DNA of 64,000 bases from an uncultured Gammaproteobacteria bacterium. Lineage in GTDB: Bacteria > Patescibacteriota > Patescibacteriia > XYB2-FULL-38-15. The translations under genes and the position numbers were made by a program. A model generated the notes under the pieces. It was not told where the DNA came from, searched no databases, and saw only the letters and a program-made list of their open reading frames with translations. The stretch spans positions 249,228 to 313,227 of the forward strand of contig OZ246416.1 in the NCBI GenBank assembly GCA_965231095.1. Reading direction: 5' to 3'. Positions 18,986-58,655 of the stretch are shown here, one piece after another. Within the stretch, counting starts at the first letter, position 1; each line of letters opens with the position of its first letter.

Positions 18986-19145
18986 CAGTAAATAATAATT
19001 AAGATAAAGTTGTTTTTCATAGTTCTTTTAGATAATTTGAGTGGCCTACCGAAGTTTACCCACGGGGGTGATTTTGGCGGGCCACTCAAGGTGTTAGTGG
19101 GAAATGGGGGGGCGGTGATAAACAGTGGCACCGTAAGGTGCAGTG

Positions 19146-20129
19146 ATGGATAAAGAGAAAGGGAAAGAAAGGTCAAGGATTCTTCTTGAGCTCGGGGGCC
19201 AAGAGATGAGGATCACAAAAAGGCGATCCTTAATCCAGGGCGTACGTCCGAGCGCGGAGGAACTGTGGGCAAATGTCGGGAATGGCGGTGCCGTGCCGAT
19301 CATCTATCGAGATCTTCCTTACAAGCGGGTTCAAGCTAACCTTCAGGTTCCCGTGTCTTGCGGATGTGAGTTGGCGGTTTGGGGCAGAGAAAGAGGCTGG
19401 AGGGGCGGCTGTTCGTTTTGCGATATTGGAAGGTTCGCTCGCCACCGCTACTTGAATGTTTCGGAGGTACTGAGCTTGGTCGGCCTGATCCTCGGAAAAT
19501 CATCCCTGGCGGATCGTTTCTGGGGGAGACAAGAGAAGTGTCTCGTGATCTCCTTTTCAGCCGCCGGGGAACCGCTTCTGAGATGGGGGATGGTAAAGGA
19601 GGCCATAATAGCTCTCTCTCGGATTTTCGGGGAAAACGGCGTTCGAGTGTTCTTCTCGATCTGCACCGTTGGGGTTGCGGACGGGATTCGCGAGCTCCTG
19701 CACGATATCAGGTTCTGCGACGAATATCGCCTTCAACTGCGTTTCTCTCTGCACTTCACGTCCGATGAAGACCGAGGGAAGTTCATTCCTGCCAATGATC
19801 CCATTCGACGAATCGTCGAACTCGGGACGACCTACGCCGAAACCGTCGGGGTAAGGTTGGTCCTCCACTACGCACTGATCCAGGGAGTCAATGACTCGCG
19901 CGAACATGCACGAGCTCTGATCAAACTGCTCTACGACCGGAGGGAACACATCCTCGTACGCGTCTCGCGGATCAATCCTGATTGCGGCGCGGGAAAAGTC
20001 GAGCTCGCTCCTTCATCCAAAAGCCGGCGGAGGAAGTTCGTTAGACTTTTGAAAGAAGGAGGACTGGAATGTTCGCCAGTCTGGGAGGGCTACGCAAGAT
20101 GGGCGTGTAACGCCGCCCATTTCCGCTAA
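19146..20129 (+). CDS. RlmN/Cfr-family radical SAM protein (rRNA adenine-C methyltransferase-like) in a GC-rich block, with an atypical Cys motif
   Basis: Collinear with RlmN: CSFCDIGRFARHRYLNVSEVLS resembles CSTGQQGFNRNLRVSEI, and LIQGVNDSREHARALIKLL…VRVSRINPDCGAG…SSKSRRRKFVRLLKEGGLECS…ARWACNAAHF matches the RlmN C-terminus including the second conserved Cys. The N-terminal cluster is SCGCELAVWGRERGWRGGCSFC rather than CX3CX2C. Confidence 0.55.
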   Translation: MDKEKGKERSRILLELGGQEMRITKRRSLIQGVRPSAEELWANVGNGGAVPIIYRDLPYKRVQANLQVPVSCGCELAVWGRERGWRGGCSFCDIGRFARHRYLNVSEVLSLVGLILGKSSLADRFWGRQEKCLVISFSAAGEPLLRWGMVKEAIIALSRIFGENGVRVFFSICTVGVADGIRELLHDIRFCDEYRLQLRFSLHFTSDEDRGKFIPANDPIRRIVELGTTYAETVGVRLVLHYALIQGVNDSREHARALIKLLYDRREHILVRVSRINPDCGAGKVELAPSSKSRRRKFVRLLKEGGLECSPVWEGYARWACNAAHFR

Positions 20130-20162
20130 CAGCTTTGGCTTGTGGGGGATAGAAAAGGAGGT

Positions 20163-20203
20163 AAGAGGCTTATCTAAGGAGGAGATAGGCCTCTCTTTTT
20201 TTG
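20163..20203 (+). terminator. Terminator after the RlmN/Cfr-like gene
   Basis: agaggcttatct…agataggcctct hairpin followed by a T7 run. Confidence 0.4.
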
Positions 20204-20220
20204 CTTATTTTTAAATGGTG

Positions 20221-20249
20221 TTGACCTTTTTAGAAGAATATCTTATAAT
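20221..20249 (+). promoter_or_regulatory. Consensus sigma70 promoter of the atp operon
   Basis: TTGACC-17 bp-TATAAT. Confidence 0.5.
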
Positions 20250-20290
20250 ACCTAAATTATCTAAATTAAGATTAGGGTAAAATTAAATCT

Positions 20291-20566
20291 GTGGATAACT
20301 CTCTAAAACCGCAAGAAATAAAAGAAAAAAACCAGACTTGGTCTGCCCTTTCTTTGGCCTGGCAACTTGGCTATTCCATTGCCATCCCGATTGTTGTTTT
20401 TGCGCTGGGCGGAAGATTGCTTGATAAAAAACTTGGCACGTCGCCGTGGCTTTTATTATCAGGAGTTATTTTATCGCTCTTTCTTTCAACTTTTTTAGTT
20501 TACGTTAAAACAATTAAAATCTTGTCTGAAACGGGACGCGAAAATAAGGAAAATAAAAAAGAATAG
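20291..20566 (+). CDS. AtpZ/AtpI-like small membrane protein (GTG start)
   Basis: Two TM helices; located upstream of atpB. Confidence 0.5.
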   Translation: MDNSLKPQEIKEKNQTWSALSLAWQLGYSIAIPIVVFALGGRLLDKKLGTSPWLLLSGVILSLFLSTFLVYVKTIKILSETGRENKENKKE

Positions 20567-24353: not shown

Positions 24354-24374
24354 TTTTAACAAATACTTTTAAGA
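24354..24374 (+). repeat. Left arm of a 21-bp perfect inverted repeat flanking the GC-rich insert in the atp operon
   Basis: ttttaacaaatacttttaaga; its reverse complement occurs at 24725-24745. Confidence 0.6.
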
Positions 24375-24407
24375 GGTTCGTACATTTGAGATAGGGAGGA
24401 GAAGCAC

Positions 24408-24671
24408 ATGCTCGATTTCTCAAAACCGACGATTACCAGAGTTGACGAAGCGTTCGTCCATGACGGGAAAGGAGGCAGTAGATTGGTTCGTCCCGGTGAT
24501 CCGGTTGAACTCTTGGACCCCGGAAACGAGTTCATGCTGAAATGGCTCGGTCCCGGACCCTACATCATTTCGTGGATTGGCGAATGGCGGTGTGGTCGAA
24601 GATCTCTTTACTTGAAAACCGAGAAGGGCGGCGAACCGGGAGATCACGAAGGCAGATTCAAGTGTGTGTAA
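24408..24671 (+). CDS. Hypothetical protein (87 aa) in a GC-rich insert between atpA and atpG
   Basis: SD agggaggag 6 nt upstream of the ATG; about 52% GC against about 40% for flanking genes. Confidence 0.4.
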   Translation: MLDFSKPTITRVDEAFVHDGKGGSRLVRPGDPVELLDPGNEFMLKWLGPGPYIISWIGEWRCGRRSLYLKTEKGGEPGDHEGRFKCV

Positions 24672-24724
24672 CGAACGATGTTCTGTGCACCAGAACATGG
24701 GGAGGCGACCTACGTTTCCCCACT

Positions 24725-24745
24725 TCTTAAAAGTATTTGTTAAAA
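24725..24745 (+). repeat. Right arm of the 21-bp inverted repeat
   Basis: tcttaaaagtatttgttaaaa is the reverse complement of 24354-24374. Confidence 0.6.
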
Positions 24746-25688: not shown

Positions 25689-27071
<1,383 letters not shown>

Positions 27072-27106
27072 AGATAACAATTAACAATTGACAGTTAACA
27101 ATCAAC

Positions 27107-27553
27107 ATGGCCGCAAAATTAAAATTTGAAATCATCACTCCCGAACGAGTTGTCCTGAAAGATGAAGTTGACCAAATAACCATTCCCACCGCGGAAGGGG
27201 AGATTACGGTTTTACCAAACCACATTCCCTTAATCGCCGTGCTTCGCCCCGGAGAAATTGTCGCTAAAAAGGGCGGCGAAGAAATTGCTATGTCCTGCTC
27301 CGGCGGATTTATTGAAGTGACAGGCGATAAAGTTTTGATTTTGGCCGACACCGCGGAAAAAGCGGAAGAACTCGTGGAAGCGGAAATTGAAAAAGCCAAA
27401 GAGCGAGCGCAAAAAATTATTGAAGAAAAACAAGTTGATACGGAAAAATATGCCGATGCCGCCGCTGGTCTTGAGCGCGAATTGGCAAGATTGAAAGTCG
27501 CGCGCAAACGCGGTCGAGCTCGCAGTGCGCCGAGCATTAGAGTTGAAGAATAA
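27107..27553 (+). CDS. atpC: ATP synthase subunit epsilon
   Basis: Beta-sandwich N-terminus (KFEIITPERVVL…) with a helical C-terminus. Confidence 0.85.
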   Translation: MAAKLKFEIITPERVVLKDEVDQITIPTAEGEITVLPNHIPLIAVLRPGEIVAKKGGEEIAMSCSGGFIEVTGDKVLILADTAEKAEELVEAEIEKAKERAQKIIEEKQVDTEKYADAAAGLERELARLKVARKRGRARSAPSIRVEE

Positions 27554-27651
27554 AATTATTTAAATATTAGAAACACCCTCTGACGCCTTCCCTGTTATTT
27601 TTTGGAAATTTCCAATAAATAATTGGGGAGGGGTTAGGAGGAGACGAAAAT

Positions 27652-28086
27652 ATGCAGCAGTACCCATTCAGAAATTTCCATCATGTTCCCGCCGTGGCCA
27701 TCTACTGTTTGGATCCGAGATTCCGAGAACAGCACGAACGGTTCATCGCTGGAGAGTTGGGCTTCGGGGAATTCGACCAGTATGTCTTTCCGGGCGGACC
27801 GAAAGTACTCGTGGACGAAGCCACACGAGCATTTTTTCTTGGCGCCATTGAGAAAGTCTCGATCGGACTTCACGGGGCCAAGGAAATAATCCTCATCGCT
27901 CATCGCGACTGCGGCGCCTATGGCGGATCCAAGAAATTCGGGAATCCGGCTGAAGAAAAAGCGACGCAGGTTGAAGACCTGAAGATCGCTCGTGGCGTTC
28001 TTGCCGAACGGTTTCCCGGGATCACCGTGACCATGTTCTACGCCGAGATCACTGGCGAATTCGTGGAGTTTTTCCCGGTAAACTAA
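27652..28086 (+). CDS. Beta-carbonic-anhydrase-like small protein (144 aa) in a GC-rich block
   Basis: Zinc-ligand motifs CLDPR (CxDxR) and HRDCGAYGG (HxxCG), spaced about 65 aa apart as in beta-CAs; SD gaggaggag. Confidence 0.4.
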   Translation: MQQYPFRNFHHVPAVAIYCLDPRFREQHERFIAGELGFGEFDQYVFPGGPKVLVDEATRAFFLGAIEKVSIGLHGAKEIILIAHRDCGAYGGSKKFGNPAEEKATQVEDLKIARGVLAERFPGITVTMFYAEITGEFVEFFPVN

Positions 28087-28187
28087 CCGCGAACGGTACA
28101 ACTGAATATTTTCCTACTCGATCCACTAAGGCCGTGCCTCGGTGGATTTTTTTGTAAAAAAAGACCGCACTCGTGGAGCGCAGTCAG

Positions 28188-28364
28188 CTAGTCCTCCTCA
28201 CCTTCGTGCATCGCGTGTTTACGCGATTGTGGCGTTCCGCCTCGTTCATCGGAGAGCGGGTCGTCTGGTTCGCCGAGATCGCCGCTGTGGCCTTCGTCCA
28301 AGACACAGGGTGGCTCATCCGGATTGTCGCTCGGAATTTCCTCCGGATCGGTTTTGCGGATCAT
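28188..28364 (-). CDS. Small acidic ORF (58 aa; MIRKTDPEEIPSDNPDEPP…)
   Basis: ATG preceded by agaggag; GC-rich block; overlaps the next small ORF. Coding status uncertain. Confidence 0.25.
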   Translation of the reverse strand: MIRKTDPEEIPSDNPDEPPCVLDEGHSGDLGEPDDPLSDERGGTPQSRKHAMHEGEED

Positions 28365-28467
28365 GCTTTTGACTCCTCTTATCTAGAGATAGGGAAATGA
28401 GAGCCGCAACCAAAGGAAGTGCCCATGCTATTGCCAGTGCCGCAGCCCACCAGATATTTTTTGACAT
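28315..28467 (-). CDS. Small membrane peptide (50 aa; MSKNIWWAAALAIAWALPLVAALISL…)
   Basis: ATG preceded by aaggag; one TM helix. Confidence 0.3.
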   Translation of the reverse strand: MSKNIWWAAALAIAWALPLVAALISLSLDKRSQKHDPQNRSGGNSERQSG

Positions 28468-28548
28468 CTTGTTCTCCTTGTGTTTAAAGTTAATCATTTT
28501 GCGATTTTCTTGTCAACTTGTTTTTTGGGAAGAAAATCGCTATAATAA

Positions 28549-29262
28549 ATGAAAATAATTATGCCAAGAATCAGTATAATAATTCCAACTTACCAGCATG
28601 GAGACATGATTGAAACGTGTCTTTTGTCGTTGTTCAACCAAACATTTAAAGATTTTGAGATTATAGTGGTAAACGACGGATCAACCGACAACACAGCCGA
28701 AATTTTAGAAAAATACAAAGACCGCGTGAAAATTATAAATCAAGAAAATCTTGGCGCGCCCTCGGCAAGAAACAGGGGATTTAGAGAATCAACCGGCGAG
28801 TTTTTAATATTCTCTGATGCTGACGTGGACGCGAAACCGGAAATGCTCGCCAAAATGTTAGAAACATTAGAAAATCATCCCGAAGCGTCATACGCATATT
28901 CATCTTTTATATGGGGAAGAAAAAAATTTAGTTTGCACGAATTTGATGGTGGGGCGTTGAAAAAAATGAATTATATTACTTCAACAACTTTAATTCGCCG
29001 CGAACATTTTCCCGGCTGGGATGAAAGTTTAAAAAAATTTCAGGATTGGGATTTATGGCTTCAGATGTTGGAGCAAGGTCACATCGGCGTTTGGGTGCCG
29101 GAATTTTTATTTACGGTTAAACCACGTCGGACGGGAATTTCCAGTTGGCTGCCGTCATTTATGTATAAAATTCCTTGGGAAAAAATCGGTTGGGCGTCGC
29201 CTAGTGCAATAAAAAAATATAATGAGGCATTAAAAATCATAAAAGCCAAACATCATTTATAA
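28549..29262 (+). CDS. Family 2 glycosyltransferase
   Basis: ISIIIPTYQ…VVNDGSTD…SDADV (DxD) motifs. Confidence 0.8.
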   Translation: MKIIMPRISIIIPTYQHGDMIETCLLSLFNQTFKDFEIIVVNDGSTDNTAEILEKYKDRVKIINQENLGAPSARNRGFRESTGEFLIFSDADVDAKPEMLAKMLETLENHPEASYAYSSFIWGRKKFSLHEFDGGALKKMNYITSTTLIRREHFPGWDESLKKFQDWDLWLQMLEQGHIGVWVPEFLFTVKPRRTGISSWLPSFMYKIPWEKIGWASPSAIKKYNEALKIIKAKHHL

Positions 29263-29266
29263 TAGT

Positions 29267-30115
29267 ATGGACCTCTCAATTATTATCGTAAATTGGAAAG
29301 TTAAAGATCTGCTGGAAAAATGCCTACGGTCTATTTTTGAACAAACTAAAAATATAAGTTTTGAGGTTTTTGTGGTTGATAATAATTCGGGCGACGGAAG
29401 CGCGGAGATGGTGCGGGAAAAATTTCCCCAAGTTGATCTGACGGCCAGCGCGGAAAACTTGGGTTTTGCAAAAGGAAATAATCTGGCGATAAAAAAATTT
29501 CGCGGCAGATATGTTTTACTTTTAAATCCCGACACGGAAATTTTAGATAATGCCTTGGGTAAAATGGTTAAATTTATGGACGCCCAAGAGGAGTGCGGCA
29601 TTGCCGGTTGCAAACTTTTAAACGCCGACTTGTCTCTTCAACCATCAGTTCGCGCTTTTCCGGATTTTGCCTCGCAGATTTTTATTTTGTTAAAAATTCA
29701 CCATTTGTTTCCGCACTCAAAAACCATGTACAAATATCTAGTTCAAGATTTTGATTATGGAAAAACACAAGAAACGGATCAGGTCATGGGTGCGTTTATG
29801 ATGATCCGACGAGAGGTGATAAATAGAATTGGAGTGCTTGATGAAAATTTTTGGATTTGGTTTGAAGAAGTTGATTTTTGCAAACGGGCAAAAGAGGCTG
29901 GTTTCAAAATTTTCTACACGCCGGAAGCAAAAATCATCCATCACTTTGGCCAAAGTTTTAAACAAGCCATGGGCGTAAAAAAACAAAAAGATTTTAACCG
30001 GAGTTTGTCGTATTATTTCAAAAAACATGGAACAAAAGGGGAGTGGATCGCAATACAGATTTTACGGCCATTAAGTTTGGCCTTGGCTTGGCTCGCGCAA
30101 AATTTTAAAAAATAA
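29267..30115 (+). CDS. Family 2 glycosyltransferase
   Basis: LSIIIVNW…VVDNNSGDGS…LLNPD motifs. Confidence 0.8.
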   Translation: MDLSIIIVNWKVKDLLEKCLRSIFEQTKNISFEVFVVDNNSGDGSAEMVREKFPQVDLTASAENLGFAKGNNLAIKKFRGRYVLLLNPDTEILDNALGKMVKFMDAQEECGIAGCKLLNADLSLQPSVRAFPDFASQIFILLKIHHLFPHSKTMYKYLVQDFDYGKTQETDQVMGAFMMIRREVINRIGVLDENFWIWFEEVDFCKRAKEAGFKIFYTPEAKIIHHFGQSFKQAMGVKKQKDFNRSLSYYFKKHGTKGEWIAIQILRPLSLALAWLAQNFKK

Positions 30116-30181
30116 AAAAAACCGACTTAATCAGCTTGCGCTTTTCAGTCGGCGTAGATTCGTTCCTCCGTCGATCGCGAT

Positions 30182-30661
30182 CTAGACCGCGATGGGCTGG
30201 TTCACGTAGAAGGCGGCGAGCGTGGCGATGATCTTCATCGCCTCAGCCTCGCCGATCTGGCGGAAGTCGCCGGCCGAAACCCGGCAGTCGGCCGCCAGAC
30301 TGCGGATGGTCTCGGTTCCGTCTCCCCCGATGCGGGTGGAGCCCTCCACTCCCCAGATATTGGCATCAGGGAAGTAGCTGACCAGGATCAGGCGTTCGCT
30401 TTCCTCTCCTCCGGTCAGAGCGACTTCGATCGAGGTGGGCTCCCACCTCTCTTGCTCTTCCTTGGGGGCGCTGGGGCTCACGCGCCCGAAGACGAGATCC
30501 CAGCCGAGGAGGAAGCCGCTGCGCGCCGACGTGTCGAAACCGGCGATGATGTCGTCGTAGTGGACGGCCTCATGCCCGTGGACGCGAAGCCTGGCAAAGA
30601 TCTCCTCGACTTTCTGGCACAACACGATCGTCTTCTTCAATCTTTCGAGCCGGGAATTCAT
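30182..30661 (-). CDS. Hypothetical protein, paralog A of a tandem 3-member family (GC-rich)
   Basis: Shares MxSRLxxLxxxIxLCxxVxxIF…GFxxxxxSGxLLGW…SIEVxL…AxxIIxTLxxFY with the neighbouring ORFs. It has its own TTGACA-17-TAGATT promoter and SD gaaggaggg. Confidence 0.5.
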   Translation of the reverse strand: MNSRLERLKKTIVLCQKVEEIFARLRVHGHEAVHYDDIIAGFDTSARSGFLLGWDLVFGRVSPSAPKEEQERWEPTSIEVALTGGEESERLILVSYFPDANIWGVEGSTRIGGDGTETIRSLAADCRVSAGDFRQIGEAEAMKIIATLAAFYVNQPIAV

Positions 30662-30805
30662 CCCTTACACCCTCCTTCTCGCCCAAACCCAATTGTTTAG
30701 GCTACACTATAATCTAACAACAAAATTATAAATTGTCAAGACTTCCTTATTCTTTTAAAATAAAAAAGCCGACCGAAGAGCAAGTGTTCCTGGTCGGCAG
30801 ACGGA

Positions 30806-31285
30806 CTATCCTCCCGCTGTGATCGCGGTCTTGACCGCGGAAAGGTTGGTATAAAAGTCGACGAGTGTTCGGATAATCGCAAAGGCTTGACCTCTACTGA
30901 TCACCCGAAAATCTCTGTTGGGCGCGAGATCCCAGGTGTCGGCCAGTTTTTGCAACGAAGCGTCTTTCGTCGCGAAACAATATTTGGCCTTCCAGATCAA
31001 GCCACCTTCACTGGGTAAAAGAATCTGGTCGCAGCGTACCTGGATGATTGGGTTGTGTCTGTCTCCCCAACTGATGAACACCTCGATGGAAATGTGTGTC
31101 TCTCTGATGTCGAGACACCAACCAAGAAGGTAGTCGCATCTTGAAGGGGCGGTGAATCCGGCGCAAAAAGGGTTGTACGGAGCAGGGATTGCTTCGCTTC
31201 CTGTGACGCTGCTTGATTCGAAGATCCCTTCAACTTCATTGCACAGTTTGATCACCCGCGTCAGTACCTGAAGTCTTGAATGCAC
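30806..31285 (-). CDS. Hypothetical protein, paralog B
   Basis: Homologous to A and C; SD aaagggagg; terminator hairpin gccgacc…ggtcggc+T6 downstream. Confidence 0.5.
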   Translation of the reverse strand: MHSRLQVLTRVIKLCNEVEGIFESSSVTGSEAIPAPYNPFCAGFTAPSRCDYLLGWCLDIRETHISIEVFISWGDRHNPIIQVRCDQILLPSEGGLIWKAKYCFATKDASLQKLADTWDLAPNRDFRVISRGQAFAIIRTLVDFYTNLSAVKTAITAGG

Positions 31286-31308
31286 TTTTGTCCTCCCTTT
31301 AGGTGCAA

Positions 31309-31764
31309 CTAGCCCACGGATAGCTTAGCGTAGAATTCGGCGAGCGACTCGATGAGTTCGAGCGCCTTGTGTTCGTCCACCAAGGTCGCACCGCGTATAA
31401 GCGACCACCTGAAGACGAGATCATGGACTGCTTGGAATCTGTCGATCTCGAAAGTTAGCACCACGCCCCACCCACAGCCGACAGTGTAAAGGAATTTGAT
31501 CAATTCTTCTGAATTGTCACCCCCGTCGTTCCAGAGACTCACCTCGAGCTGGCAAGGAAGAAGCTCGCCTACGCGACTCGCGTGGTTGTCGAGGTAATTT
31601 AACCGCCAGATGAGAACCAACCCACTCTTGGGTTCGGCGACGAAATCCACAATGGTGGCCGGGTGGTAGATCTGCCGGCCGACAACCCTTGCCTCTCGGA
31701 AGATGTTCATGATGCGATCGCAGAGCGCTAACATACCATGCAAGTCACCAAGCCTATTATCCAT
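31309..31764 (-). CDS. Hypothetical protein, paralog C
   Basis: Homologous to A and B; promoter TTGACA-16-TAAATT; SD aaaggaggg. Confidence 0.5.
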   Translation of the reverse strand: MDNRLGDLHGMLALCDRIMNIFREARVVGRQIYHPATIVDFVAEPKSGLVLIWRLNYLDNHASRVGELLPCQLEVSLWNDGGDNSEELIKFLYTVGCGWGVVLTFEIDRFQAVHDLVFRWSLIRGATLVDEHKALELIESLAEFYAKLSVG

Positions 31765-31842
31765 TTTGTCCCTCCTTTTTTTCGCCGAGTTTTACTCGGA
31801 CTTCATATCAATTTATCACCTGAATATTAATTGTCAACCGCC

Positions 31843-33273
31843 ATGGACCTTTTCGGAAAATATTTTAAAACCTCGCTGCTTTTTATTTCTCTCACGCTGA
31901 TTTTGTCGTTCTGCGCTTACTTTTTTCCGCTTTTTAATAAAGCAGCGTTTTTTGTAATTTTGGCGCTGACGCTTGTTTTAACTTTAGAAAAATTAGAGTA
32001 TGGACTTTATATCTTACTGGCAGAATTATTTATTGGTTCAAAAGGATATCTTTTTTTTCTAGACACTGGGGGAGTTTCGGTTTCCTTGCGCATAGGTTTA
32101 TTTTTAATTGTGATGGCAGTTTGGATTTATAACAGATTAAAGATTAAAGATTTAAGATTTAAATTGGATAAATGGTATTGGATTTTATTTGCCTTTATCG
32201 CCTGGGGTTTTGTTTGGGGATTAATTCGCGGAAACTCTTTCCAAAATTTATTTTTTGATTTTAACGGCTGGATTTATTTTGCCCTGGTTTTTCCGCTCGC
32301 TGACGTTATCAAATCGCGCGAGCAAATTGAAAATGTTTTACAAATTTTTACCGCCTCAATTACAATCATTATCGTAAAAACTTTTATTTTTCTTTATATT
32401 TTCTCCCACGGATTTGAAGTTGTCGTCTTGCCGATTTATCGCTGGCTCCGGCAATTTCTAATCGGAGAGGTTACGCTAATGCCGAGCGGTTTTTACCGGA
32501 TATTTTTTCAATCGCAGATTTATTTATTGATTGGATTTTTTATTTTTTCCGCATTTTTAATTTGGGAAAATAAAAAAGATAAAAGATGTTGGTTCTTGGC
32601 TGTTGGGTCGCTGACCTCGGTTTTGATTAGTTTTTCTCGAAGTTTTTGGGTGGGACTCGCGGCTGGAATTATCGCGTTTTTGGTAATTTTAATTATTCAA
32701 AAATTTTCTTTCGGAAAAATCGTGAGAATCGGCTTAGCCGGCCTCGCCATTTTAATAATTTCTTTGTCCGCGACTTTTGTCACGGCGCAATTTCCGTTCC
32801 CCGAACCGAGAAAAATTTCTTTTGCCTCAATGTTTAGTGACCGTCTGACTGATTTAGATGAAGCAGCGGTCCGAAGTCGCTGGGATTTACTCCCGCCGCT
32901 CGGCCGGGAAATTGTAAAACATCCGATTGTCGGTTCTGGTTTTGGGACAACTGTCACTTATAAAAGCAGTGACCCGCGAGCTGTGCAATTTAATCCCGGC
33001 GGGATATTCACAACCTATGCCTTTGAATGGGGATTTTTGGATATTATGTTGAAAATCGGTCTGGCTGGGTTGGTTGTTTATATACTTCTAATCGTTAAAA
33101 TTTGGCGTTTTGGGTGGTTTTTAGGGCGATCTAGGGACTTTATCTTCCCCGGACTTTTGCTTGGGTTAGCCGCTCTTTTGGCCACAAATTTTTTCAGCCC
33201 ATACTTAAACCATCCGTTGGGGATTGGTTATATAATGCTTTGCGATATAATCTTTCAAAAATTAAAAAGTTGA
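31843..33273 (+). CDS. O-antigen ligase/polymerase (Wzy_C) family membrane protein
   Basis: About 10-12 TM protein with a periplasmic loop (SRSFWVGLAAGIIAFL…). The track start at 31831 is TTG; ATG at 31843. Confidence 0.65.
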   Translation: MDLFGKYFKTSLLFISLTLILSFCAYFFPLFNKAAFFVILALTLVLTLEKLEYGLYILLAELFIGSKGYLFFLDTGGVSVSLRIGLFLIVMAVWIYNRLKIKDLRFKLDKWYWILFAFIAWGFVWGLIRGNSFQNLFFDFNGWIYFALVFPLADVIKSREQIENVLQIFTASITIIIVKTFIFLYIFSHGFEVVVLPIYRWLRQFLIGEVTLMPSGFYRIFFQSQIYLLIGFFIFSAFLIWENKKDKRCWFLAVGSLTSVLISFSRSFWVGLAAGIIAFLVILIIQKFSFGKIVRIGLAGLAILIISLSATFVTAQFPFPEPRKISFASMFSDRLTDLDEAAVRSRWDLLPPLGREIVKHPIVGSGFGTTVTYKSSDPRAVQFNPGGIFTTYAFEWGFLDIMLKIGLAGLVVYILLIVKIWRFGWFLGRSRDFIFPGLLLGLAALLATNFFSPYLNHPLGIGYIMLCDIIFQKLKS

Positions 33274-33378
33274 TTTTAAAAAGCTAAATTTTAAAATCCC
33301 CGCACTGGGCGGGGTTGACAAAAACATTATTTTATAGTATATTTTATAGTTGTCTTTGGATGGAAGGGAGGGTTGGGA

Positions 33379-33585
33379 ATGGTGAGAGATGACGACGTTT
33401 TTCTCTTCGAGGTCAAGTGTGAAACATGCGGGGAAAATTTCTACTACGACGCCCTGACCTTGACCTTGGCGCGGATTCGTGTTCGCTTCGGCGTACACGA
33501 GTTCTGCTGCCACTGGCGTAACGCTACCGCGGTTGGAGAAAAAAATCCCGCCGCGAGAAAAAAGGAGGAAAGAAGATGCCGTTGA
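33379..33585 (+). CDS. Small Cys-containing protein (68 aa) in a GC-rich cassette
   Basis: Promoter TTGACA-17-TATATT upstream, SD ggagggttg, and C…CxxC…CC content. Confidence 0.35.
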   Translation: MVRDDDVFLFEVKCETCGENFYYDALTLTLARIRVRFGVHEFCCHWRNATAVGEKNPAARKKEERRCR

Positions 33586-33641
33586 TCGAAGTTGCGGTCA
33601 AGCGGTTTGACCCGGCGAAGGACGCGTTCTCTTCGAGCTAG
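33576..33641 (+). CDS. Candidate 21-aa peptide (MPLIEVAVKRFDPAKDAFSSS) overlapping the previous ORF's stop
   Basis: Near-perfect SD aaaaggagga 5 nt upstream of the ATG. Coding status speculative. Confidence 0.2.
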   Translation: MPLIEVAVKRFDPAKDAFSSS

Positions 33642-33789
33642 TTCGGAGGTCTGCGGCTGTTAGCCGTTCGCGGTGTCACTTAACTCGTGGCGCCGCTTTT
33701 TTTATTTGACTTTTATCCCAATTTATATAAAATAGACTTATCAAGGTCGCTTTTCTAAACAGCGCGAGGCAAGGGAAAGGGAGGCGGAA

Positions 33790-34107
33790 ATGGTAACGAT
33801 TGAGGTTGGGAATACGGGAGTAGAAGAACGGAAGCGGCGATTCAAGGATATGCTGACAAAAGAGATCGTGAAGATCGGGGGCATCGGAGACAACGTGGAT
33901 GTGACGATCCGGTTCTGTGGCGCGACAGACCGGAGGCGAGGGCCGCTCAATCTCCACATTTTGGACGGCAGCGGTCTTCCGGGCCATCTTCACGGCAAGA
34001 TCGCCGAGGGTCTTTGCTCGGTAGCCAGGAGGTTCTACGAGGAAAACGGCCACGGTGTCCGACCGGTGGAAACTACGATCGGTTCCGTTTTGCGCAAAAT
34101 CGACTAG
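33790..34107 (+). CDS. Hypothetical protein (105 aa), GC-rich
   Basis: Own promoter TTGACT-16-TAAAAT, SD gggaggcgg, and terminator gcggcag…ctgccgc+T-run. Confidence 0.45.
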   Translation: MVTIEVGNTGVEERKRRFKDMLTKEIVKIGGIGDNVDVTIRFCGATDRRRGPLNLHILDGSGLPGHLHGKIAEGLCSVARRFYEENGHGVRPVETTIGSVLRKID

Positions 34108-34330
34108 GAGGCTTACTAATAAGCGAAAGCGGCAGGGGTAAAAATCTCTGCCGCTTCTTTTTTTCTCTGCGGGGGTTGACAAATTTTATAAATAGTGTAT
34201 AATAAAGGCATAATTCAATAAGCTCCGTTTTAAGCGGAGCAAGTAGAAGAGTAGGACAATTTTAACGATAGATCCTTAAGATAATATCAAAAGGTCATAA
34301 GTTAAAATGACCGAGACTTCCAAGTAACTT

Positions 34331-34516
34331 ATGGCCTTCAACAATCAAGGCTTTGGCCAGAGACCTCCGCGCCAGATGTTCAATGTCGCTGACATGAACC
34401 TCAAGTGCGCTGACTGTGGCACTCCGATCACCGAGCTTCCTTTTAAGCCAGCCGCTGATCGACCAGTTTATTGCTTTGAATGCAACAAAAAGCGTAGAGC
34501 TGATTTTGCAAGATAA
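34331..34516 (+). CDS. Zinc-ribbon protein with a CxxC-x17-CxxC domain (61 aa)
   Basis: CADCGTPITELPFKPAADRPVYCFEC. It is preceded by TTGACA-16-TATAAT and an approximately 120-nt structured leader, and followed by terminator ccacccccgat/atcgggggtgg. Confidence 0.55.
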   Translation: MAFNNQGFGQRPPRQMFNVADMNLKCADCGTPITELPFKPAADRPVYCFECNKKRRADFAR

Positions 34517-34577
34517 GAGATAAATAAAACCACCCCCGATGTATCGGGGGTGGTTTTGTGTTATATAAAATTTATTT

Positions 34578-35528
34578 TTAAAGTAGCGTAGCGCCTAAAA
34601 TTTTTTGATAACCTCGTAAAAATTCGCGGCCGGTTGTTTTATTTTTTCCTTCAAGTTGAAGCTCGCTTATTTTTAAATTTTCCCCGGCGGCGGAAAAGAG
34701 CATTTCGCCACTTTCCGTGACACCGACTTTTCCCGGCGTTCCCGCTTCTCCGGTTTCCAAAATCTCCGCTTTTATTATTTTTAATCTTACGGTTTTTTTG
34801 CCGTCCTTCCATTCAGACCAAGTCCCGGGCCATTCTTCAAAGGCCCTAATTTGTCGGTCAATTTCTTTCGCGGATTTTTGCCAATCAATTTTTCCGTCTT
34901 CACGAGTTAAAATTTTTGTATAAGTCGCTTTTGATTCGTCTTGCGGTATGGGCCCAATTTCACCGCTTAGCCATTTTGGCAGTGTTTCCAACAATAAATC
35001 TCCACCCATTTCTGCTAGTTTTTTTAGCAACTCGCCGTAACCAATTTTTAAATTTTCAATTTCAAATTTATGGCTCGCGATTATCGCCCCATGATCAACT
35101 TGCTCATCCATTAAAATTATTGTCACGCCGGTTTCTTTATCACCTTCTAAAATTGTGGATTGGATTGGCGTGGCTCCGCGATGGCGGGGGAGAAGGGAGG
35201 GATGAATATTTATCGCGCCAAATCTTGGAATATCTAAAATATTTTTAGGAATTATTTTTCCGTAATCAGCGACAACAAGCAAATCCGGCTCAAAAGATTT
35301 TATCATTTTTTCCGCTTCGTCGTTTTTTAAATTTTTCGGTTCAAGTATTTTAAAATCAAACTCCAGAGCAATTTTTTTAGCTCTGGACGGAGAGGGGATT
35401 TGTTTTCGGCCAACGGGTTTATTCGGTTGGGTAACCAGGGCTACCGGCTTAAATTCCGACTCAGTTAATTTTTCTAAAATCGCCGCGCCAAATTCTCCGC
35501 TGCCAGCGAATAGTATTTTATAATTCAT
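34578..35528 (-). CDS. fmt: Methionyl-tRNA formyltransferase
   Basis: N-terminal formyltransferase fold with HPSLLPRHRGATPIQ; C-terminal Fmt domain. Confidence 0.9.
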   Translation of the reverse strand: MNYKILFAGSGEFGAAILEKLTESEFKPVALVTQPNKPVGRKQIPSPSRAKKIALEFDFKILEPKNLKNDEAEKMIKSFEPDLLVVADYGKIIPKNILDIPRFGAINIHPSLLPRHRGATPIQSTILEGDKETGVTIILMDEQVDHGAIIASHKFEIENLKIGYGELLKKLAEMGGDLLLETLPKWLSGEIGPIPQDESKATYTKILTREDGKIDWQKSAKEIDRQIRAFEEWPGTWSEWKDGKKTVRLKIIKAEILETGEAGTPGKVGVTESGEMLFSAAGENLKISELQLEGKNKTTGREFLRGYQKILGATLL

Positions 35529-35537
35529 GGTTTTAGA

Positions 35538-36011: not shown

Positions 36012-36036
36012 GGTGTGTTAAATTAGAGATGTTATA

Positions 36037-37983: not shown

Positions 37984-37985
37984 GT

Positions 37986-40933: not shown

Positions 40934-40947
40934 CCGGCGCCCCACCG

Positions 40948-41775: not shown

Positions 41776-41799
41776 CGAGGTCTGGGCTAGCAGCCTTTC

Positions 41800-41929: not shown

Positions 41930-42027
41930 ATCTCTTGACGGAAAATTAAATATAATTTAACCTAAGCAAAAGGTTAGAAACCTTGACGCGAGGCAGTTCG
42001 CCCGCGTGGAAAAGGGAGGGAAGTAAC

Positions 42028-42476: not shown

Positions 42477-42581
42477 TCGGCCCGGACAACGTAACCGTCG
42501 CGTTGGACACCCGGGCAAAATGAGGAATGGCGGCTTACCTGCGGCACGACGCCCCATCCGAGGGAAGGAAGGAACCCCGGC

Positions 42582-42857
42582 ATGATAAGTGCTGGAATCG
42601 TGCCTGCCCTCGTGCAGATCTGCGTCGGTGGTAACTGGGACGTCTGCTCTTACACTTCGCCGTTGTTTACGTCCGTCCATCACGACGGTCGTACGAACGA
42701 CCTCGACGGACGAGACGGTGTCTTCGAATGCTCGGAGGACGCTCCGCGCGTTCGCGACGAGGTGACGAGCGCCCGGCCAAGCGGAAGCCCGCTCCTGGCC
42801 GTTCGTACCAGTACACCGTGCAGTTCATGCGCGAGACAGGCACGCGCGCCGCCCTGA
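42582..42857 (+). CDS. Hypothetical Cys-containing protein (91 aa)
   Basis: SD ggaagga; followed by terminator cccggct…agccggg+T6 (about 42864-42912). Confidence 0.35.
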   Translation: MISAGIVPALVQICVGGNWDVCSYTSPLFTSVHHDGRTNDLDGRDGVFECSEDAPRVRDEVTSARPSGSPLLAVRTSTPCSSCARQARAPP

Positions 42858-43018
42858 CGTAACCCCGGCTTGTGAAGAGACCGAAATATCTTCCGAGCCG
42901 GGTCTTTTTTATGTCGCAAAAATTCAAAAATCCTAACCAATATGCTGGATAGGATTTTATGTTGGAGTCCCGATTTTAGTCGGGCAAAATTGCCCACTCT
43001 AAAGAGTGGATTCCGTTT

Positions 43019-47208: not shown

Positions 47209-47286
47209 ACTATACGATTGTACCAAAAATTTGTAAAAAAATAAACCGACGCTTCCTCCCTTGCGTCGGTAATGTTCTTTCGCAGA

Positions 47287-47475
47287 TCACTTCTTCTCTT
47301 CCCATCCGCGCGCGATCAGTTCGGCATCATGCATGGTGAGTTTCCGCGAGTTGAAGCGCAACCCCCGAAAAACGTCGGGCGGCAACTTCTCGCGCAGGTA
47401 GCGCAAAGCGGCTTCCGTCTCACCGTGCCGATCGCCTTGCGTCACACCCTTCTGTCCACCTTGTTGCTTTGTCAT
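47287..47475 (-). CDS. Hypothetical small protein (62 aa), last gene of the GC-rich minus-strand operon
   Basis: Follows the Zn-ribbon gene; terminator hairpin ccgacgc…gcgtcgg+T-run at 47236-47262 (minus sense). Confidence 0.35.
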   Translation of the reverse strand: MTKQQGGQKGVTQGDRHGETEAALRYLREKLPPDVFRGLRFNSRKLTMHDAELIARGWEEKK

Positions 47476-47489
47476 TTTTTCCTCCGATT

Positions 47490-47957
47490 CTACGCCGCCT
47501 CACCCCGTGGAACTACGCCGCAGTCCGGACACTGGATGATCCGCTCGAACGACTTTGTGTACGTCCCGAAGGCGTGCTTGTTTCCGCAGCGGGGACAGGC
47601 GAGATCGTACTTGATCCAGTGAACGTGCTTCTCCCAGTCGCAAATCAAACATCGCAGAACAAAATACGGCGGCTTCATCTCCCTGGTCTGCATGCCGTTG
47701 TGTCCGCACCTTTGGCAAAAAAAGCCCGTGTCGCAGTGAACGCAGTGACCCTTGCCATCTGCCGGAATGGCGCAAACATGAGGATGGTGTTGCGGCGAAA
47801 TTTGCAGCCGCGCCCTTGTCAGGCGACTTTCGGCAGCCGCGCCTATCCCGACACGAACCACGCAAGCGTGACACTGCGAGCAAAGCCCTCCTTGCTTCCG
47901 CGGATGCCCGCAATTCGGGCAAGGATCTCCGTCGTATTTACCCCAAGAGTCTTCCAT
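47490..47957 (-). CDS. Multi-zinc-ribbon protein (155 aa from ATG 47957; the track's GTG start is at 48023)
   Basis: Seven CxxC pairs (CPNCG, CSQCH, CVHCD, CQRCG, CLICD, CPRCG, CPDCG); SD ggagag. Confidence 0.45.
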   Translation of the reverse strand: MEDSWGKYDGDPCPNCGHPRKQGGLCSQCHACVVRVGIGAAAESRLTRARLQISPQHHPHVCAIPADGKGHCVHCDTGFFCQRCGHNGMQTREMKPPYFVLRCLICDWEKHVHWIKYDLACPRCGNKHAFGTYTKSFERIIQCPDCGVVPRGEAA

Positions 47958-47967
47958 TTTTTCTCTC

Positions 47968-48147
47968 CTATCCGGAAACGTTCGGTCCGTAGATGGTCCG
48001 ATACGCCTCTTCAAAACGCGCACCTTCGCGTACTTTTACGGCGCGGAGTGCCGCAGTCCAAAACACAACAGACGCGCGCTCCTCAAACGACAAATTTCTC
48101 CACCACCTGAGAACTTCGCGTTGTTTTTGAGTTTCCTTCCTAGCCAT
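47968..48147 (-). CDS. Small protein (59 aa; MARKETQKQREVLRWWRNLSFEERASVVFW…), first gene of the GC-rich operon
   Basis: Not in the ORF track (below 60 aa). Strong SD aaaaggagga before the ATG; promoter TTGACT-17-TAGATT upstream (about 48185-48215, minus sense). Confidence 0.3.
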   Translation of the reverse strand: MARKETQKQREVLRWWRNLSFEERASVVFWTAALRAVKVREGARFEEAYRTIYGPNVSG

Positions 48148-48265
48148 TTTTCCTCCTTTTCTACCATAAATCTATCAAAAAACCTAAATTTAGTCAATCC
48201 CCAAAAGTTTGCCTAAAATTATAAAAAATGCTACAATTTTATACTAAATACTTTATGACATATTA

Positions 48266-56301: not shown

Positions 56302-56302
56302 A

Positions 56303-57778
56303 TTATTTATTTTCCGGTTTTAGGGTTGGAAATAAAATTACTTCTTTAATATTGTGCGAATTTGTAAGAAGCGCGGTCAACCGGTCAATTCCCATTCCGA
56401 GTCCGGCGGTCGGCGGCATGCCGTGTTCCAGGGCGGCAATGAAATCTTCATCTATTCTCATTGCTTCCTCGTCTCCGGCGGTGCGCATTTTCTGTTGAGA
56501 CTCAAATCTTTCCCGCTGATCAATTGGATCGTTTAATTCGGAAAAGGCATTCATTAATTCCGTGCCGGCCACGAGTAACTGAAATCTTTCCACATACCGC
56601 GGATCGCCTGAAACTTTTTTGGCAAGCGGTGAAAGTTCAATCGGATGGTTAATGACAAAAATCGGATTAACAATTTTTGGCCGGACAACTTTTTTAAAAA
56701 TCTCATCCATTATTTTTCCTCGGTCGTCGGAGGGCAAAATTTCCAAACCTAACTCCCGAGCTTTTTTAGCCATGTTTTCGCGATCGGGATATTGCTCAAT
56801 GTCGCAGCCGCCAAACTTTATTAAAATATCCCGGAAAGTAATTCGCTCATAAGGCGGCGTAAAATCAATCGTGTCTTTTTCATAAACTGTTTTCATTTCT
56901 CCGCCATTTGTTTTTTTCATTAAATAAACAAAAAACTTTTCCATCATTTTCATCAAATCCTGGTAATCGGCGTAGGCGCGATAAAGTTCAACTTGGGTAA
57001 ATTCCGGATTATGCGACCAATCAATTCCTTCATTTCTAAAACATCTGGCAATCTCAAAAACTTTTTCAAATCCTCCGACCACGAGTTTTTTTAAATAAAG
57101 TTCCGGGGCAACGCGAAGATAAAAATCGGTATCAAGAGCGTTGTGGTGCGTGATAAATGGTCTGGCCGTCGCTCCTCCGGGAATAGGCTGGAGAATCGGA
57201 GTTTCCACTTCCATAAATCCATCGCGCTCCAAAAAATCTTTAATGGTTTTTATAATTAAACTCCTTTTCTTAAAAATTTCCCGAACGCTCGGGTTCGCGA
57301 TCAAATCCAAATATCTCTGGCGATAACGAATTTCCACGTCAGAGAGCCCATGCCACTTTTCCGGTAGCGGCGCTAAAGTTTTAGTTAAAAGTTTCAACGC
57401 TTCCACTTCCAAGGTTTTCTCGCCGGTTTTTGTCGTGAAAAGCGTTCCTTTTACCCGGACGAAATCACCGATGTCAACTAATTCTTTAAAAAATTTATAT
57501 GGTTTCGCGCCAAAATGATCTTCGCGAAAAAACAATTGGATTATTCCGGTTTCGTCTTCCAAATTGGCAAAAGCCGAGCCGCCGTGAAGCCGGACACTTT
57601 TCAGCCGCCCAACCAAAGAAATCATCTTTTTCCCGGCGCTGAATTTATCAAAATTATCCAAAACTTGGCTTACCAAATGGCTTCGTTTGGCAGTCGAAGG
57701 ATATGGATTAACTTTTTGTTGCCTAATTTCCTTTAATTTTTCCAATCTGGCTAGCCGTTCGTCGGTTGATTTTTCCAT
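56303..57778 (-). CDS. lysS: Lysyl-tRNA synthetase (class II)
   Basis: OB-fold N-terminus and class II core (…FRNEG…; GLGMGIDRL). Confidence 0.9.
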   Translation of the reverse strand: MEKSTDERLARLEKLKEIRQQKVNPYPSTAKRSHLVSQVLDNFDKFSAGKKMISLVGRLKSVRLHGGSAFANLEDETGIIQLFFREDHFGAKPYKFFKELVDIGDFVRVKGTLFTTKTGEKTLEVEALKLLTKTLAPLPEKWHGLSDVEIRYRQRYLDLIANPSVREIFKKRSLIIKTIKDFLERDGFMEVETPILQPIPGGATARPFITHHNALDTDFYLRVAPELYLKKLVVGGFEKVFEIARCFRNEGIDWSHNPEFTQVELYRAYADYQDLMKMMEKFFVYLMKKTNGGEMKTVYEKDTIDFTPPYERITFRDILIKFGGCDIEQYPDRENMAKKARELGLEILPSDDRGKIMDEIFKKVVRPKIVNPIFVINHPIELSPLAKKVSGDPRYVERFQLLVAGTELMNAFSELNDPIDQRERFESQQKMRTAGDEEAMRIDEDFIAALEHGMPPTAGLGMGIDRLTALLTNSHNIKEVILFPTLKPENK

Positions 57779-57902
57779 ATTTTTAAGGTTGTTTTAAACA
57801 ATTTATTGCTTTAATTTTATCTTAATTTAAGAATAATGTCAAAATTTTAATTTGCGAAAAATATCCTATTTGGTAAGATAAAAATTAAGGAGGGAGTAAA
57901 CA

Positions 57903-58070
57903 ATGACAAAAGGCAAAAAATCGCCAAGGATAGCACGGCGATGGGCAAAGGCCTTGAAGACATACGGCGCGAGAAGCTGGAGGGAGCTCACCCCAGAGGA
58001 ACGGTTCGCGGCCTACGAGAGAGGGCTTCACTACTGGCAAAATCAGGAGGGCACACTTCCTCTGAGCTGA
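57903..58070 (+). CDS. Small basic protein (55 aa; MTKGKKSPRIARRWAKALKTYGARSW…) in a GC-rich block
   Basis: Not in the track. SD aaggaggg 8 nt upstream; promoter TTGCGA-16-TAAGAT; terminator ccggcg…cgccgg+T-run downstream. Confidence 0.25.
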   Translation: MTKGKKSPRIARRWAKALKTYGARSWRELTPEERFAAYERGLHYWQNQEGTLPLS

Positions 58071-58181
58071 CGGAGACAAAAACCGGCGAATCCAAAAATG
58101 GAAACGCCGGAATTTTTTATATAAAAAAGAGCACCGATTTGTAGTCGATGCTCGGATTCGGGAAAGCGGCGCGCGGGCCGC

Positions 58182-58529
58182 CTACTTCGCCAGGTGCAAA
58201 TCGATCCGGCAGAAGCCCATCTCCTCGCGCTCCTCGGGCGTATTGGGCGTCGTCGCCACCTCGATCTTCTCGCCCTCGAGCTGCATGGCCGCGATGATCT
58301 CGCAGATCTTGACCAAAAGCGGCTCATCGCCACTCTCAGAATTGTCATCGAATTTCCGATGGGTCCACCCACCCCCCTGTCCCCCACCCACGATGAGGAT
58401 CTGGCTGCGGCCGAAGAGACGGACGGCGTTCAGAGCGTTCGTCACTACTTCCGGCTCGATCGTGCCGCGAATGCCGAACGCCGCCGGTTTCTGGCGCAAG
58501 GCCAACTGAAGTACGAGTTTCTGACCCAT
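58182..58529 (-). CDS. Hypothetical protein (115 aa), GC-rich
   Basis: SD aaggagg before the ATG; Gly-rich ILIVGGGQGGGW segment; terminator hairpin downstream. Confidence 0.4.
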   Translation of the reverse strand: MGQKLVLQLALRQKPAAFGIRGTIEPEVVTNALNAVRLFGRSQILIVGGGQGGGWTHRKFDDNSESGDEPLLVKICEIIAAMQLEGEKIEVATTPNTPEEREEMGFCRIDLHLAK

Positions 58530-58655
58530 TCCCCTTCCTCCTTCTTTTCCTCAAAGTTGAGGATTTTATAGCTTAAAATATTTACACCCTTTTGTCAAGA
58601 GATAACAAAAGCCAGGTCAAATGACCTGGCCAATCTTTTAATTACCCACTACTCA

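Follow-up and report, generated by a model that had tools for sequence, protein, structure and literature searches.

GC-rich, Shine–Dalgarno-led accessory gene units between the AT-rich core genes of a Falkowbacteria-like member of the Patescibacteria

We analysed a 64,000-nucleotide stretch of contig OZ246416.1 (assembly GCA_965231095.1, positions 249,228–313,227, forward strand; hereafter the window) from an uncultured groundwater bacterium of the Patescibacteria, or candidate phyla radiation (CPR). GC-rich blocks lie between its AT-rich core genes, and we conclude that these are real, self-contained accessory gene units. They represent accessory islets at recombination hot spots with two unusual traits: they are GC-richer than the surrounding genome, and their genes are almost exactly the only ones led by a Shine–Dalgarno (SD) sequence. 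By its atp genes the nearest species representative is a Candidatus Falkowbacteria metagenome-assembled genome (L001), whose AtpG is 88% identical; one block protein is 100% identical to a protein encoded on an 886-kb NCBI contig. Little is known of how Patescibacteria, with their tiny genomes and a presumed life on other cells, gain and exchange genes.

Composition, coding content and translation signals

The window as a whole has a GC content of 42.0%. When blocks were called from GC content in 200-nt sliding windows, runs were obtained at 19041–20200 (GC 0.547), 24361–24740 (0.497), 27181–28480 (0.508), 30061–31820 (0.533), 33341–34180 (0.525), 40741–42980 (0.559), 47221–48160 (0.549) and 57861–58600 (0.539). 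The original prediction, made by reading the DNA without database searches, had described eight discrete GC-rich blocks, and these are found where it placed them, as runs of 50–56% GC. They are also intergenic, as it had claimed, even within the atp operon, where block 2 lies between atpA and atpG. Small or novel open reading frames (ORFs) are present in each block, although their number has to be corrected from eight genes to about 20 ORFs, arranged in one to three units per block (B1 to B8 below, with letters within a block).

The blocks also differ from the rest of the genome in codon usage. Block ORFs have a GC content of 0.51–0.63 and a third-position GC content (GC3) of 0.56–0.84, compared with 0.33–0.47 and 0.33–0.45, respectively, in 20 flanking core genes, a set that includes ATP synthase subunits, ClpB, glycosyltransferases, Fmt and PriA. 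The blocks prefer ATC, AAG, GAG and CTC/CTG, where the host prefers ATT, AAA, GAA and TTA. Because the GC3 of ATP synthase and ClpB is host-like, the heterogeneity does not track high expression, an explanation that had been named as a possible refutation and that we reject. The non-coding portions of the units are likewise GC-rich (0.43–0.66), unit boundaries are sharp to tens of bases, and GC3 shows no gradient in the flanks, being 0.395 in core genes near units and 0.395 in the rest (P = 0.9). GC-richness therefore belongs to the whole unit, and reflects neither codon selection nor spill-over from gene conversion. The window and its four nearest relatives head a ranking by the fraction of DNA in such blocks (10–20%) among 127 loci, each of at least 8 kb, from other CPR and bacterial genomes; 86 of these loci had no such block.

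Chimeric assembly of the blocks, which had also been put forward as a way in which they might prove spurious, is excluded for practical purposes. An independent Logan assembly of SRR8863431 (L081) is 100% identical to window positions 26823–41033 over 14,211 bp, a match that spans blocks 3, 4 and 5 and stops in a repeat inside block 6. For the relatives, assemblies from JGI, ENA, NCBI submitters and Logan are identical to one another and have the same architecture. The relatives compared were L001, L083, L084/L165, L085, L163, L167, L171, L172, L174 and L175, and a like architecture is present in L001, L083, L084, L163, L165, L167, L171, L172, L174 and L175.

The blocks are mainly protein-coding rather than RNA genes. 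B1 encodes a divergent RlmN/Cfr-like radical SAM protein, B3a a Pro_CA_2 protein, and B6b a secreted, Cys-rich protein with RTX-type repeats, the matches for these three coming from Pfam, NCBIfam and PDB. The remaining block ORFs have no family assignment; for B8b, relatives were absent from Pfam, PHROGs, PADLOC, NCBIfam, PDB, viral contigs and plasmids. A confident AlphaFold model of B4b (predicted local distance difference test score 83, predicted template-modelling score 0.82) had no match to a solved fold. Peptides of the block ORFs are kept in relatives, and the ORFs follow the order GC3 > GC1 > GC2, which indicates coding; Cys makes up 3.4% of block proteins versus 0.6%. Neither tRNAs nor Rfam matches were found inside the blocks, the latter neither at the gathering score nor at E up to 1. 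Folding z-scores of the block coding regions against shuffled controls ranged from −1.8 to +0.9, and selection for RNA structure in these regions was rejected because the values lie near zero. The RNA of B6a (40786–41078) is highly structured (z −4.2 to −4.9), yet it holds a conserved SD-led ORF of 27 codons; it has 76% nucleotide identity in L084, where the RYGPFA peptide is kept.

The most unusual feature, absent from the original prediction, is the contrast between core genes without an SD and strongly SD-led block genes. An SD of at least 5 nt precedes only 1 of 56 core genes, whereas a GGAGG-type SD at normal spacing precedes 16 of 19 block ORFs, or 17 of 19 after one start correction. 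The regions upstream of core genes are A/T-rich, and many first genes of operons begin 2–10 nt past a TATAAT or TGnTATAAT box, a spacing that points to leaderless mRNAs for many core genes. Core genes are likewise SD-less in L163, L166, L167 and L169, and the dichotomy between core genes and units recurs in relatives. These observations suggest that leaderless or SD-independent initiation is widespread in this CPR lineage. At the B4 slot, SD motifs are kept in all lineages although synonymous sites are saturated, which argues that the SD is under selection and used in these cells; this conservation implies that a usable anti-SD exists. Neither the window nor the other loci of the clade contain an rRNA gene. 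An anti-SD motif was seen in only 48% of Parcubacteria 16S genes (PMC9297842).

A possible further member of the SD-led class lies outside the range covered by the original prediction, at 11115–11324 on the forward strand. This 69-aa membrane ORF (GC 0.46, GC3 0.57) follows an AAGGAG SD and contains a GGLNWGLVG motif, which may resemble DUF378.

Units, slots and exchange between lineages

The units share a common plan. An AT-rich promoter that approaches TTGACA-17-TATAAT is followed by a GC-rich leader with a strong SD, then by small ORFs, between one and three in number, and an intrinsic terminator. Their promoters match 9–12 of the 12 consensus positions, and the top matches in consensus scans are mostly those of units. 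By scans and direct reading, a promoter and terminator of their own were assigned to B1, B3b/c, B4a, B4c-b, B5a, B5b, B6a, B6b, B6c-e, B7, B8a and B8b. The claim that each block carries a promoter, SD and terminator thus stands for most units, but not for B2 (24408–24671) and B3a (27652–28086), which have no evident promoter of their own. No sequence is shared among the blocks, except by the three block 4 paralogues and a duplicated 135-bp module in block 6.

In congeneric genomes the slots (promoter, terminator and flanking genes) are kept, and their content is a divergent homologue, an unrelated cargo or absent. Because promoters and terminators are kept with differing cargo, they are parts of the slot and do not travel with the cassette. 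Several blocks are old: B1, B3a and a single copy of B4 are found in the same slots throughout the congeneric genomes examined. B2, B6b, B7, B3b/c and B4b/c are each absent from at least one relative.

B1 (18982–20203, forward strand) has a TTGACA-17-TAAAGT promoter at 18982–19010, a GC-rich hairpin leader at 19040–19142 and a terminator at 20164–20203; its ORF (19143–20129, GC3 0.61) encodes the 328-aa radical SAM protein. Orthologues with 61–74% identity occupy the same slot in L001, L165 and others. Three allele groups can be distinguished, with mutual identities of 32–43% and all GC-rich; L163 and L167 carry divergent ones. The L001 orthologue (4719–5492, 68% identical) lacks the N-terminal region that bears the radical SAM Cys cluster, and this copy may be truncated or inactivated.

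B2 (24354–24745, forward strand) consists of a GGGAGG SD and an ORF of 87 codons (24408–24671, GC3 0.56), enclosed by the arms of a 24-bp inverted repeat (24354–24377 and 24722–24745). Neither a promoter nor a terminator of its own was found in it. B2 occurs only in the window; in other relatives the atpA–atpG spacer is 9–39 bp. At the same junction L001 has an AT-rich small membrane ORF resembling SemiSWEET/PQ-loop proteins (9662–9955).

B3a (27620–28160, forward strand) has a leader of about 100 nt, an AGGAGG SD, a 144-aa Pro_CA_2 ORF (PF20393; 27652–28086, GC3 0.61) and a terminator at about 28124–28155. A Pro_CA_2 gene lies 3′ of atpC even in distant CPR lineages. The GC-rich form, with its leader of about 100 nt and SD, is present in the window, L163, L172 and L174, and an AT-rich, SD-less form abuts atpC in L165 and L167; L170 has an AT-rich allele with an SD. 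Alleles of different form are 66–69% identical, compared with about 90% for core proteins. The existence of AT-rich, SD-less alleles means that neither GC-richness nor an SD is required for this protein. In L165/L166 a second Pro_CA_2 paralogue, GC-rich and SD-led, directly follows the AT-rich SD-less copy (10528–10989); the single Pro_CA_2 of L001 is of this second type (62% identical), and its leader resembles that of B3a in the window. B3b/c (28163–28515, reverse strand) carries two overlapping SD-led ORFs, 28315–28467 (50 aa, membrane-like) and 28188–28364 (58 aa), and a terminator at 28185–28163. The unit is present in L174 and, with different small ORFs, in L163, and is absent from L172.

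Block 4 contains three copies of one family, all on the reverse strand, where relatives have a single copy in the slot. B4a (30118–30739) has a TTGACA-17-TAGATT promoter at 30739–30711, an AAGGAGG SD, a 159-aa ORF (30182–30661, GC3 0.84) and a terminator at 30118–30150. B4c-B4b (30756–31837) has its promoter at 31837–31810, SD-led ORFs at 31309–31764 (151 aa) and 30806–31285 (159 aa), and a terminator at about 30756–30800. B4b and B4c are diverged paralogues of B4a (26–37% identity). A B4a-type allele is common to L163, L165 and L167 (57–66% identity), and the most distant member of the family, also GC-rich, adjoins Wzy_C.

The two B5 units occupy 33315–34160 on the forward strand. B5a has a promoter at 33315–33343, a Cys-rich 68-aa ORF at 33379–33585 and a terminator at 33670–33696; B5b has a promoter at 33706–33733, a 105-aa ORF at 33790–34107 (GC3 0.68) and a terminator at 34127–34156. 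In L001 the promoter and terminator are kept around a cargo without significant similarity, and L001 and L084 share a different family, of 129 or 130 aa, in this slot.

The original prediction had extended this block to 34560, and only its 5′ part proved to consist of cassettes. The 3′ part is a conserved core gene (34176–34557, forward strand) whose 61-aa zf_Tbcl_2 protein (34331–34516, GC 0.49) is 93–97% identical in relatives. Its promoter matches the consensus at 12/12 positions, and its leader (34205–34330) is about 125 nt long. Promoter and leader (34176–34330) are near-invariant in five genomes with otherwise saturated synonymous sites, and a hairpin in this region has two compensatory pairs and no Rfam match. 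The leader of this zinc-ribbon gene is a candidate cis-regulatory RNA.

Block 6 (forward strand) begins with B6a (40749–41084), in which a promoter at 40749–40777 precedes the structured GC-rich RNA of about 290 nt, with its SD-led ORF at 40850–40933. The 3′ end of B6a is a 135-bp hairpin-plus-terminator module (40950–41084), and a second copy, 91% identical, ends B6b (41801–41935). B6b (41093–41935) has a promoter at 41093–41120 and an ORF (41185–41775, GC3 0.77) for a Cys-rich 196-aa protein with a signal peptide and an RTX-type repeat. The whole B6b unit is absent from L084, which makes B6b an insertion flanked by a 135-bp direct repeat. B6c-e (41925–42912) has a promoter at about 41925–41955, ORFs at 42028–42279 (83 aa, two transmembrane segments), 42279–42476 (65 aa, ending GECSLA) and 42582–42857 (91 aa, candidate coding), and a terminator at 42866–42912. 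B6c and B6d show 46–54% identity in L084 and L083, L083 lacking B6c, and L085 has an AT-rich region of 877 bp with no GC-rich block at the site.

B7 (47243–48197, reverse strand) has a TTGACT-17-TAGATT promoter at 48197–48169, SD-led ORFs at 47968–48147 (59 aa), 47490–47957 (155 aa, with many CxxC motifs) and 47287–47475 (62 aa), and a terminator at 47243–47272. The site is empty (16 bp) in L083. In L084 the same promoter and terminator enclose a different cargo of 1.2 kb, with a 47%-identical Cys-rich protein. B8a (57850–58118, forward strand) has the SD AAGGAGGG, a 55-aa ORF at 57903–58070 (GC3 0.64) and a terminator at about 58078–58118. B8b (58129–58597, reverse strand) has a TTGACA promoter at 58597–58569, an AAGGAGG SD, a 115-aa ORF at 58182–58529 (GC3 0.80) and a terminator at 58153–58129. 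L083 has an extra GC-rich unit (reverse complement of 11142–11666; promoter, hairpin leader, SD, 111-aa ORF of GC3 0.67, terminator) between the genes for alanine racemase and seryl-tRNA synthetase, which overlap in the window (junction 54582/54590).

At least one cassette, B4a, has been exchanged between species. Between L163 and L165 the proportion of synonymous differences (pS) is 0.27 in B4a and 0.65 in the flanking GT2b and Wzy genes; for all 14 core genes compared it is 0.51–0.82. The B4a cassette has therefore moved between these lineages without its flanks. In addition, the allele relationships of B1, B3a and B4 conflict with one another and with those of the core genes. Taken with the confinement of B2 to the window, the absence of B6b from L084 and of B3b/c from L172, the empty B7 site and the extra unit in L083, the move of B4a bears out the proposal that the blocks do not stem from a single horizontal transfer. 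When the window is compared with L172, its closest relative, the pS of B3a is 0.45 and its proportion of non-synonymous differences (pN) 0.077, both equal to those of its flanks; this fits vertical inheritance at an ordinary rate, and hypermutation of the cassettes was rejected. The pairs L165/L166, L163/L164 and L167/L168 are 100% identical and uninformative for microevolution.

Origin of the GC-rich units

We consider it somewhat better than an even bet that the units are long-lived accessory cassettes of foreign-origin composition, recombined via conserved flanks and slowly ameliorating towards AT. The blocks would then be the flexible gene content of a Falkowbacteria-like genus, each consisting of one to three autonomous transcription units in conserved slots between AT-rich core genes. 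A host-type sigma-70 promoter would yield a GC-rich mRNA from which small ORFs are translated by means of a strong SD, with an intrinsic terminator insulating the neighbouring genes, while the core genes have essentially no SD and would use A/U-rich or leaderless starts. Strong SDs would be kept because a structured, GC-rich leader does not permit the SD-independent initiation on which core genes rely. Exchange would proceed by homologous recombination in conserved flanks, without dedicated cassette machinery; the conserved promoters, terminators and core flanks suffice for such replacement, and the 135-bp repeat around B6b would be the expected trace of a single crossover in a shared 3′ module. 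The GC-rich composition would point to an origin of the units in a source that was GC-richer and used SDs, and since then they would have been drifting slowly towards the composition of the host.

When synonymous changes were polarised with two outgroups, GC-rich genes showed 13 strong-to-weak (G/C to A/T) and 2 weak-to-strong changes, compared with 10 and 8 in the core gene GT2a, an excess that fits decay towards host composition. In a simple two-state calculation, a gene that entered close to the base of the genus with a GC3 of about 0.85 would by now have reached about 0.55–0.62, which is the level of B1, B3a and B4b. Both C3 and G3 are raised, with no A-specific pattern, and a signature of A-to-G editing or reverse transcription (RT) was rejected.

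Several observations weigh against import followed by decay. No donor lineage was found for the block families, homologues (of B1, B3a and B4) being found only in this CPR clade and always with AT-rich flanks. The B1 and B4 families are confined to the clade, with 8 matches among 5.8 billion proteins and 12 clusters among 1.84 billion representatives, and even their most distant member has the same slot and core neighbours. GC-richness persists in all lineages although synonymous divergence is saturated (pS 0.5–0.8); import and decay alone would then require either imports with a GC3 of at least 0.85 at about the time the genus arose, or a continual resupply. As the promoters resemble those of the host and are AT-rich, the units cannot have brought a promoter of the donor with them. 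Polarised changes in B1 are about balanced (16–23 strong-to-weak versus 22–24 weak-to-strong), and the 13:2 excess comprises only 15 changes and is also expected among recent changes if selection holds GC. The repeated acquisition originally proposed thus survives in the sense of several independent events of gain, loss or replacement, but several blocks are old and no donor was found.

These points lead to the strongest alternative, which we nevertheless regard as unlikely: that the units form a second, native gene class that has long resided in the genome, with selection holding both its composition and its dependence on the SD in a separately controlled expression regime. Its purpose could possibly be anti-SD-dependent translation, or unusual stability of the mRNAs or their resistance to AU-specific RNases. 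It would account for the same families being GC-rich in the same slots in every lineage seen, including that of the very distant B4 member, for a GC3 that stays at 0.57–0.84 under saturation, for the kept SD motifs, the missing outside donor and the balanced changes in B1, and for the enrichment in Cys, which GC pressure does not explain. It accords poorly with the strong-to-weak excess, found in the two least saturated comparisons, and with the Pro_CA_2 alleles that are AT-rich, without an SD in L165 and L167 and with one in L170. GC3 also varies widely among units (0.56–0.84), coding regions are no more structured than shuffled controls, and units are dispensable in close relatives. In a bolder form, which we put forward just as tentatively, one genome would hold two translation regimes, the selected GC-rich, SD-dependent accessory set being a separately switchable regulon swapped between species as promoter-to-terminator cassettes.

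Autonomous mobile cassettes (integron-like, miniature inverted-repeat transposable element (MITE)-like or captured by reverse transcription from transcripts), with dedicated insertion at or near transcription start sites, seem improbable. The boundaries of the cargo do fall at the transcription start region and at the terminator, the direct repeat around B6b is as expected after single-crossover integration of a circle, B2 is flanked by its inverted repeat, and the window encodes both a reverse transcriptase and a large serine recombinase. However, neither an integrase nor attC-like sites, shared ends, terminal repeats or recombination sites accompany the units in the window, and the promoters and terminators stay in the slot when the cargo changes, so that the family of small mobile cassettes envisaged in the original prediction receives no support. 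As to integrons, the window has no attC, adjacent integron integrase or promoterless array, and the units have their own promoters. A MITE family was rejected because the inverted repeat of B2 occurs just once in the window and in none of 171 loci; nor was a clear target-site duplication seen at B2. No repeat pairs of the kind found in diversity-generating retroelements link the blocks to the rest of the window, the reverse transcriptase is of the UG13b class and not of that of these retroelements, and block divergence spans whole genes. A phage or defence origin was likewise rejected: with PHROGs and PADLOC the block proteins gave a weak Fe-S match for B1, a marginal HEC-08 match for B7b and nothing else, and scans of viral contigs and tblastn searches of plasmids revealed no relatives.

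The recombinase and the reverse transcriptase lie in a separate AT-rich island (about 1.5–10 kb), and nothing links this island to the blocks. The gene for the large serine recombinase (1596–3329, reverse strand; Resolvase, Recombinase and Zn_ribbon_recom domains), the only recombinase in the window and 17 kb from the blocks, is overlapped at its 3′ end by a tRNA-Asn gene (1563–1637, forward strand) and is followed by about 8 kb of AT-rich DNA with several ORFs without a family match. The arrangement of tRNA-Asn and recombinase resembles the border of an integrated element. The reverse transcriptase gene (5581–6921, forward strand; PADLOC RT_UG13b, E 5e-143) has a LOOT RNA (RF03000; 6985–7115, forward strand; 77 bits against a gathering score of 46.4) directly 3′ of it, and this pairing may point to a template or partner RNA of the enzyme. 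UG13b is a predicted defence reverse transcriptase (PMC9226505).

That GC-biased gene conversion at recombination hot spots raised GC in place is very improbable. The cassettes do recombine between lineages, and they are fast-evolving at the protein level and enriched in Gly, Ala, Arg and Pro. This process is at odds, however, with the flat GC3 of adjacent core genes, with boundaries that are sharp within tens of bases, and with the GC-rich and AT-rich alleles of B3a, which differ by a whole leader-plus-SD module and not gradually. Finally, although GC-rich DNA in an AT-rich genome is the classic signature of chimeras or contamination and of structured RNA genes, yields long spurious ORFs in all frames and includes the highly structured B6a, we give these explanations hardly any credence in view of the identical independent assemblies, the synteny of the blocks in many genomes from different samples, the lack of Rfam matches in the blocks, the coding-region folding scores near zero, and the protein-family matches, conserved peptides, correctly spaced SDs and codon-position pattern that indicate coding.

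Relation to known systems

The window presents a compact and repeatable flexible-genome architecture, in which single-unit slots between housekeeping genes, even in the atp operon, are filled by small proteins restricted to the clade, many of which are Cys-rich, secreted or membrane-bound. The double signature of GC-richness and a strong SD, neither of which the core genes have, allows the accessory genes of such organisms to be picked out from sequence by a simple rule. It also raises the testable question of whether core and accessory genes differ in how their translation starts. Were the composition actively maintained, it would be a rare bacterial example of base composition specific to a class of genes. 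Our literature searches found no description of this pattern.

The units resemble acquired islets and the phage ‘morons’, a concept reportedly due to Hendrix and colleagues for autonomous promoter–gene–terminator units of atypical composition between conserved genes. They are discrete, have their own promoter and terminator, leave the conserved genes on either side undisturbed, differ in presence between close relatives and bear signs of drift to host composition, as in the amelioration model that is said to go back to Lawrence and Ochman. Acquired genes are usually AT-richer than their host, however, and these units are GC-richer. Unlike morons they lie in a cellular chromosome, and their promoter and terminator belong to a conserved slot rather than to the cargo; moreover, the same families recur in the same slot genus-wide, and neither a donor nor phage relatives were detected.

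O-antigen and capsule loci and other integration hot spots are hypervariable loci that are exchanged by homologous recombination in conserved flanks. The slots share with them conserved flanks, highly divergent and incongruent alleles, and transfer between species at the level of the cassette (pS 0.27 versus 0.65). They differ in being many and tiny (0.3–2 kb), with single small transcription units among housekeeping genes, including the atp operon, and in the signature of composition and translation signals that the units have in common. Like integron cassettes, the units are small, mostly single-gene, of high turnover and of no known function, but they are dispersed, each with a promoter and terminator, without integrase, attC or array.

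For translation, the closest parallel is with Bacteroidota, for which SD-independent translation with a sequestered anti-SD is described in the work of Jha et al. (2021; PMC7797042), as cited in PMC9723584; part of the Parcubacteria have lost the anti-SD motif (PMC9297842). As in the Bacteroidota regime, nearly all core genes of the window are SD-less, with A/T-rich upstream regions or leaderless starts, and a small minority of genes is strongly SD-led. In contrast to Bacteroidota, that minority coincides here almost exactly with the GC-rich accessory units.

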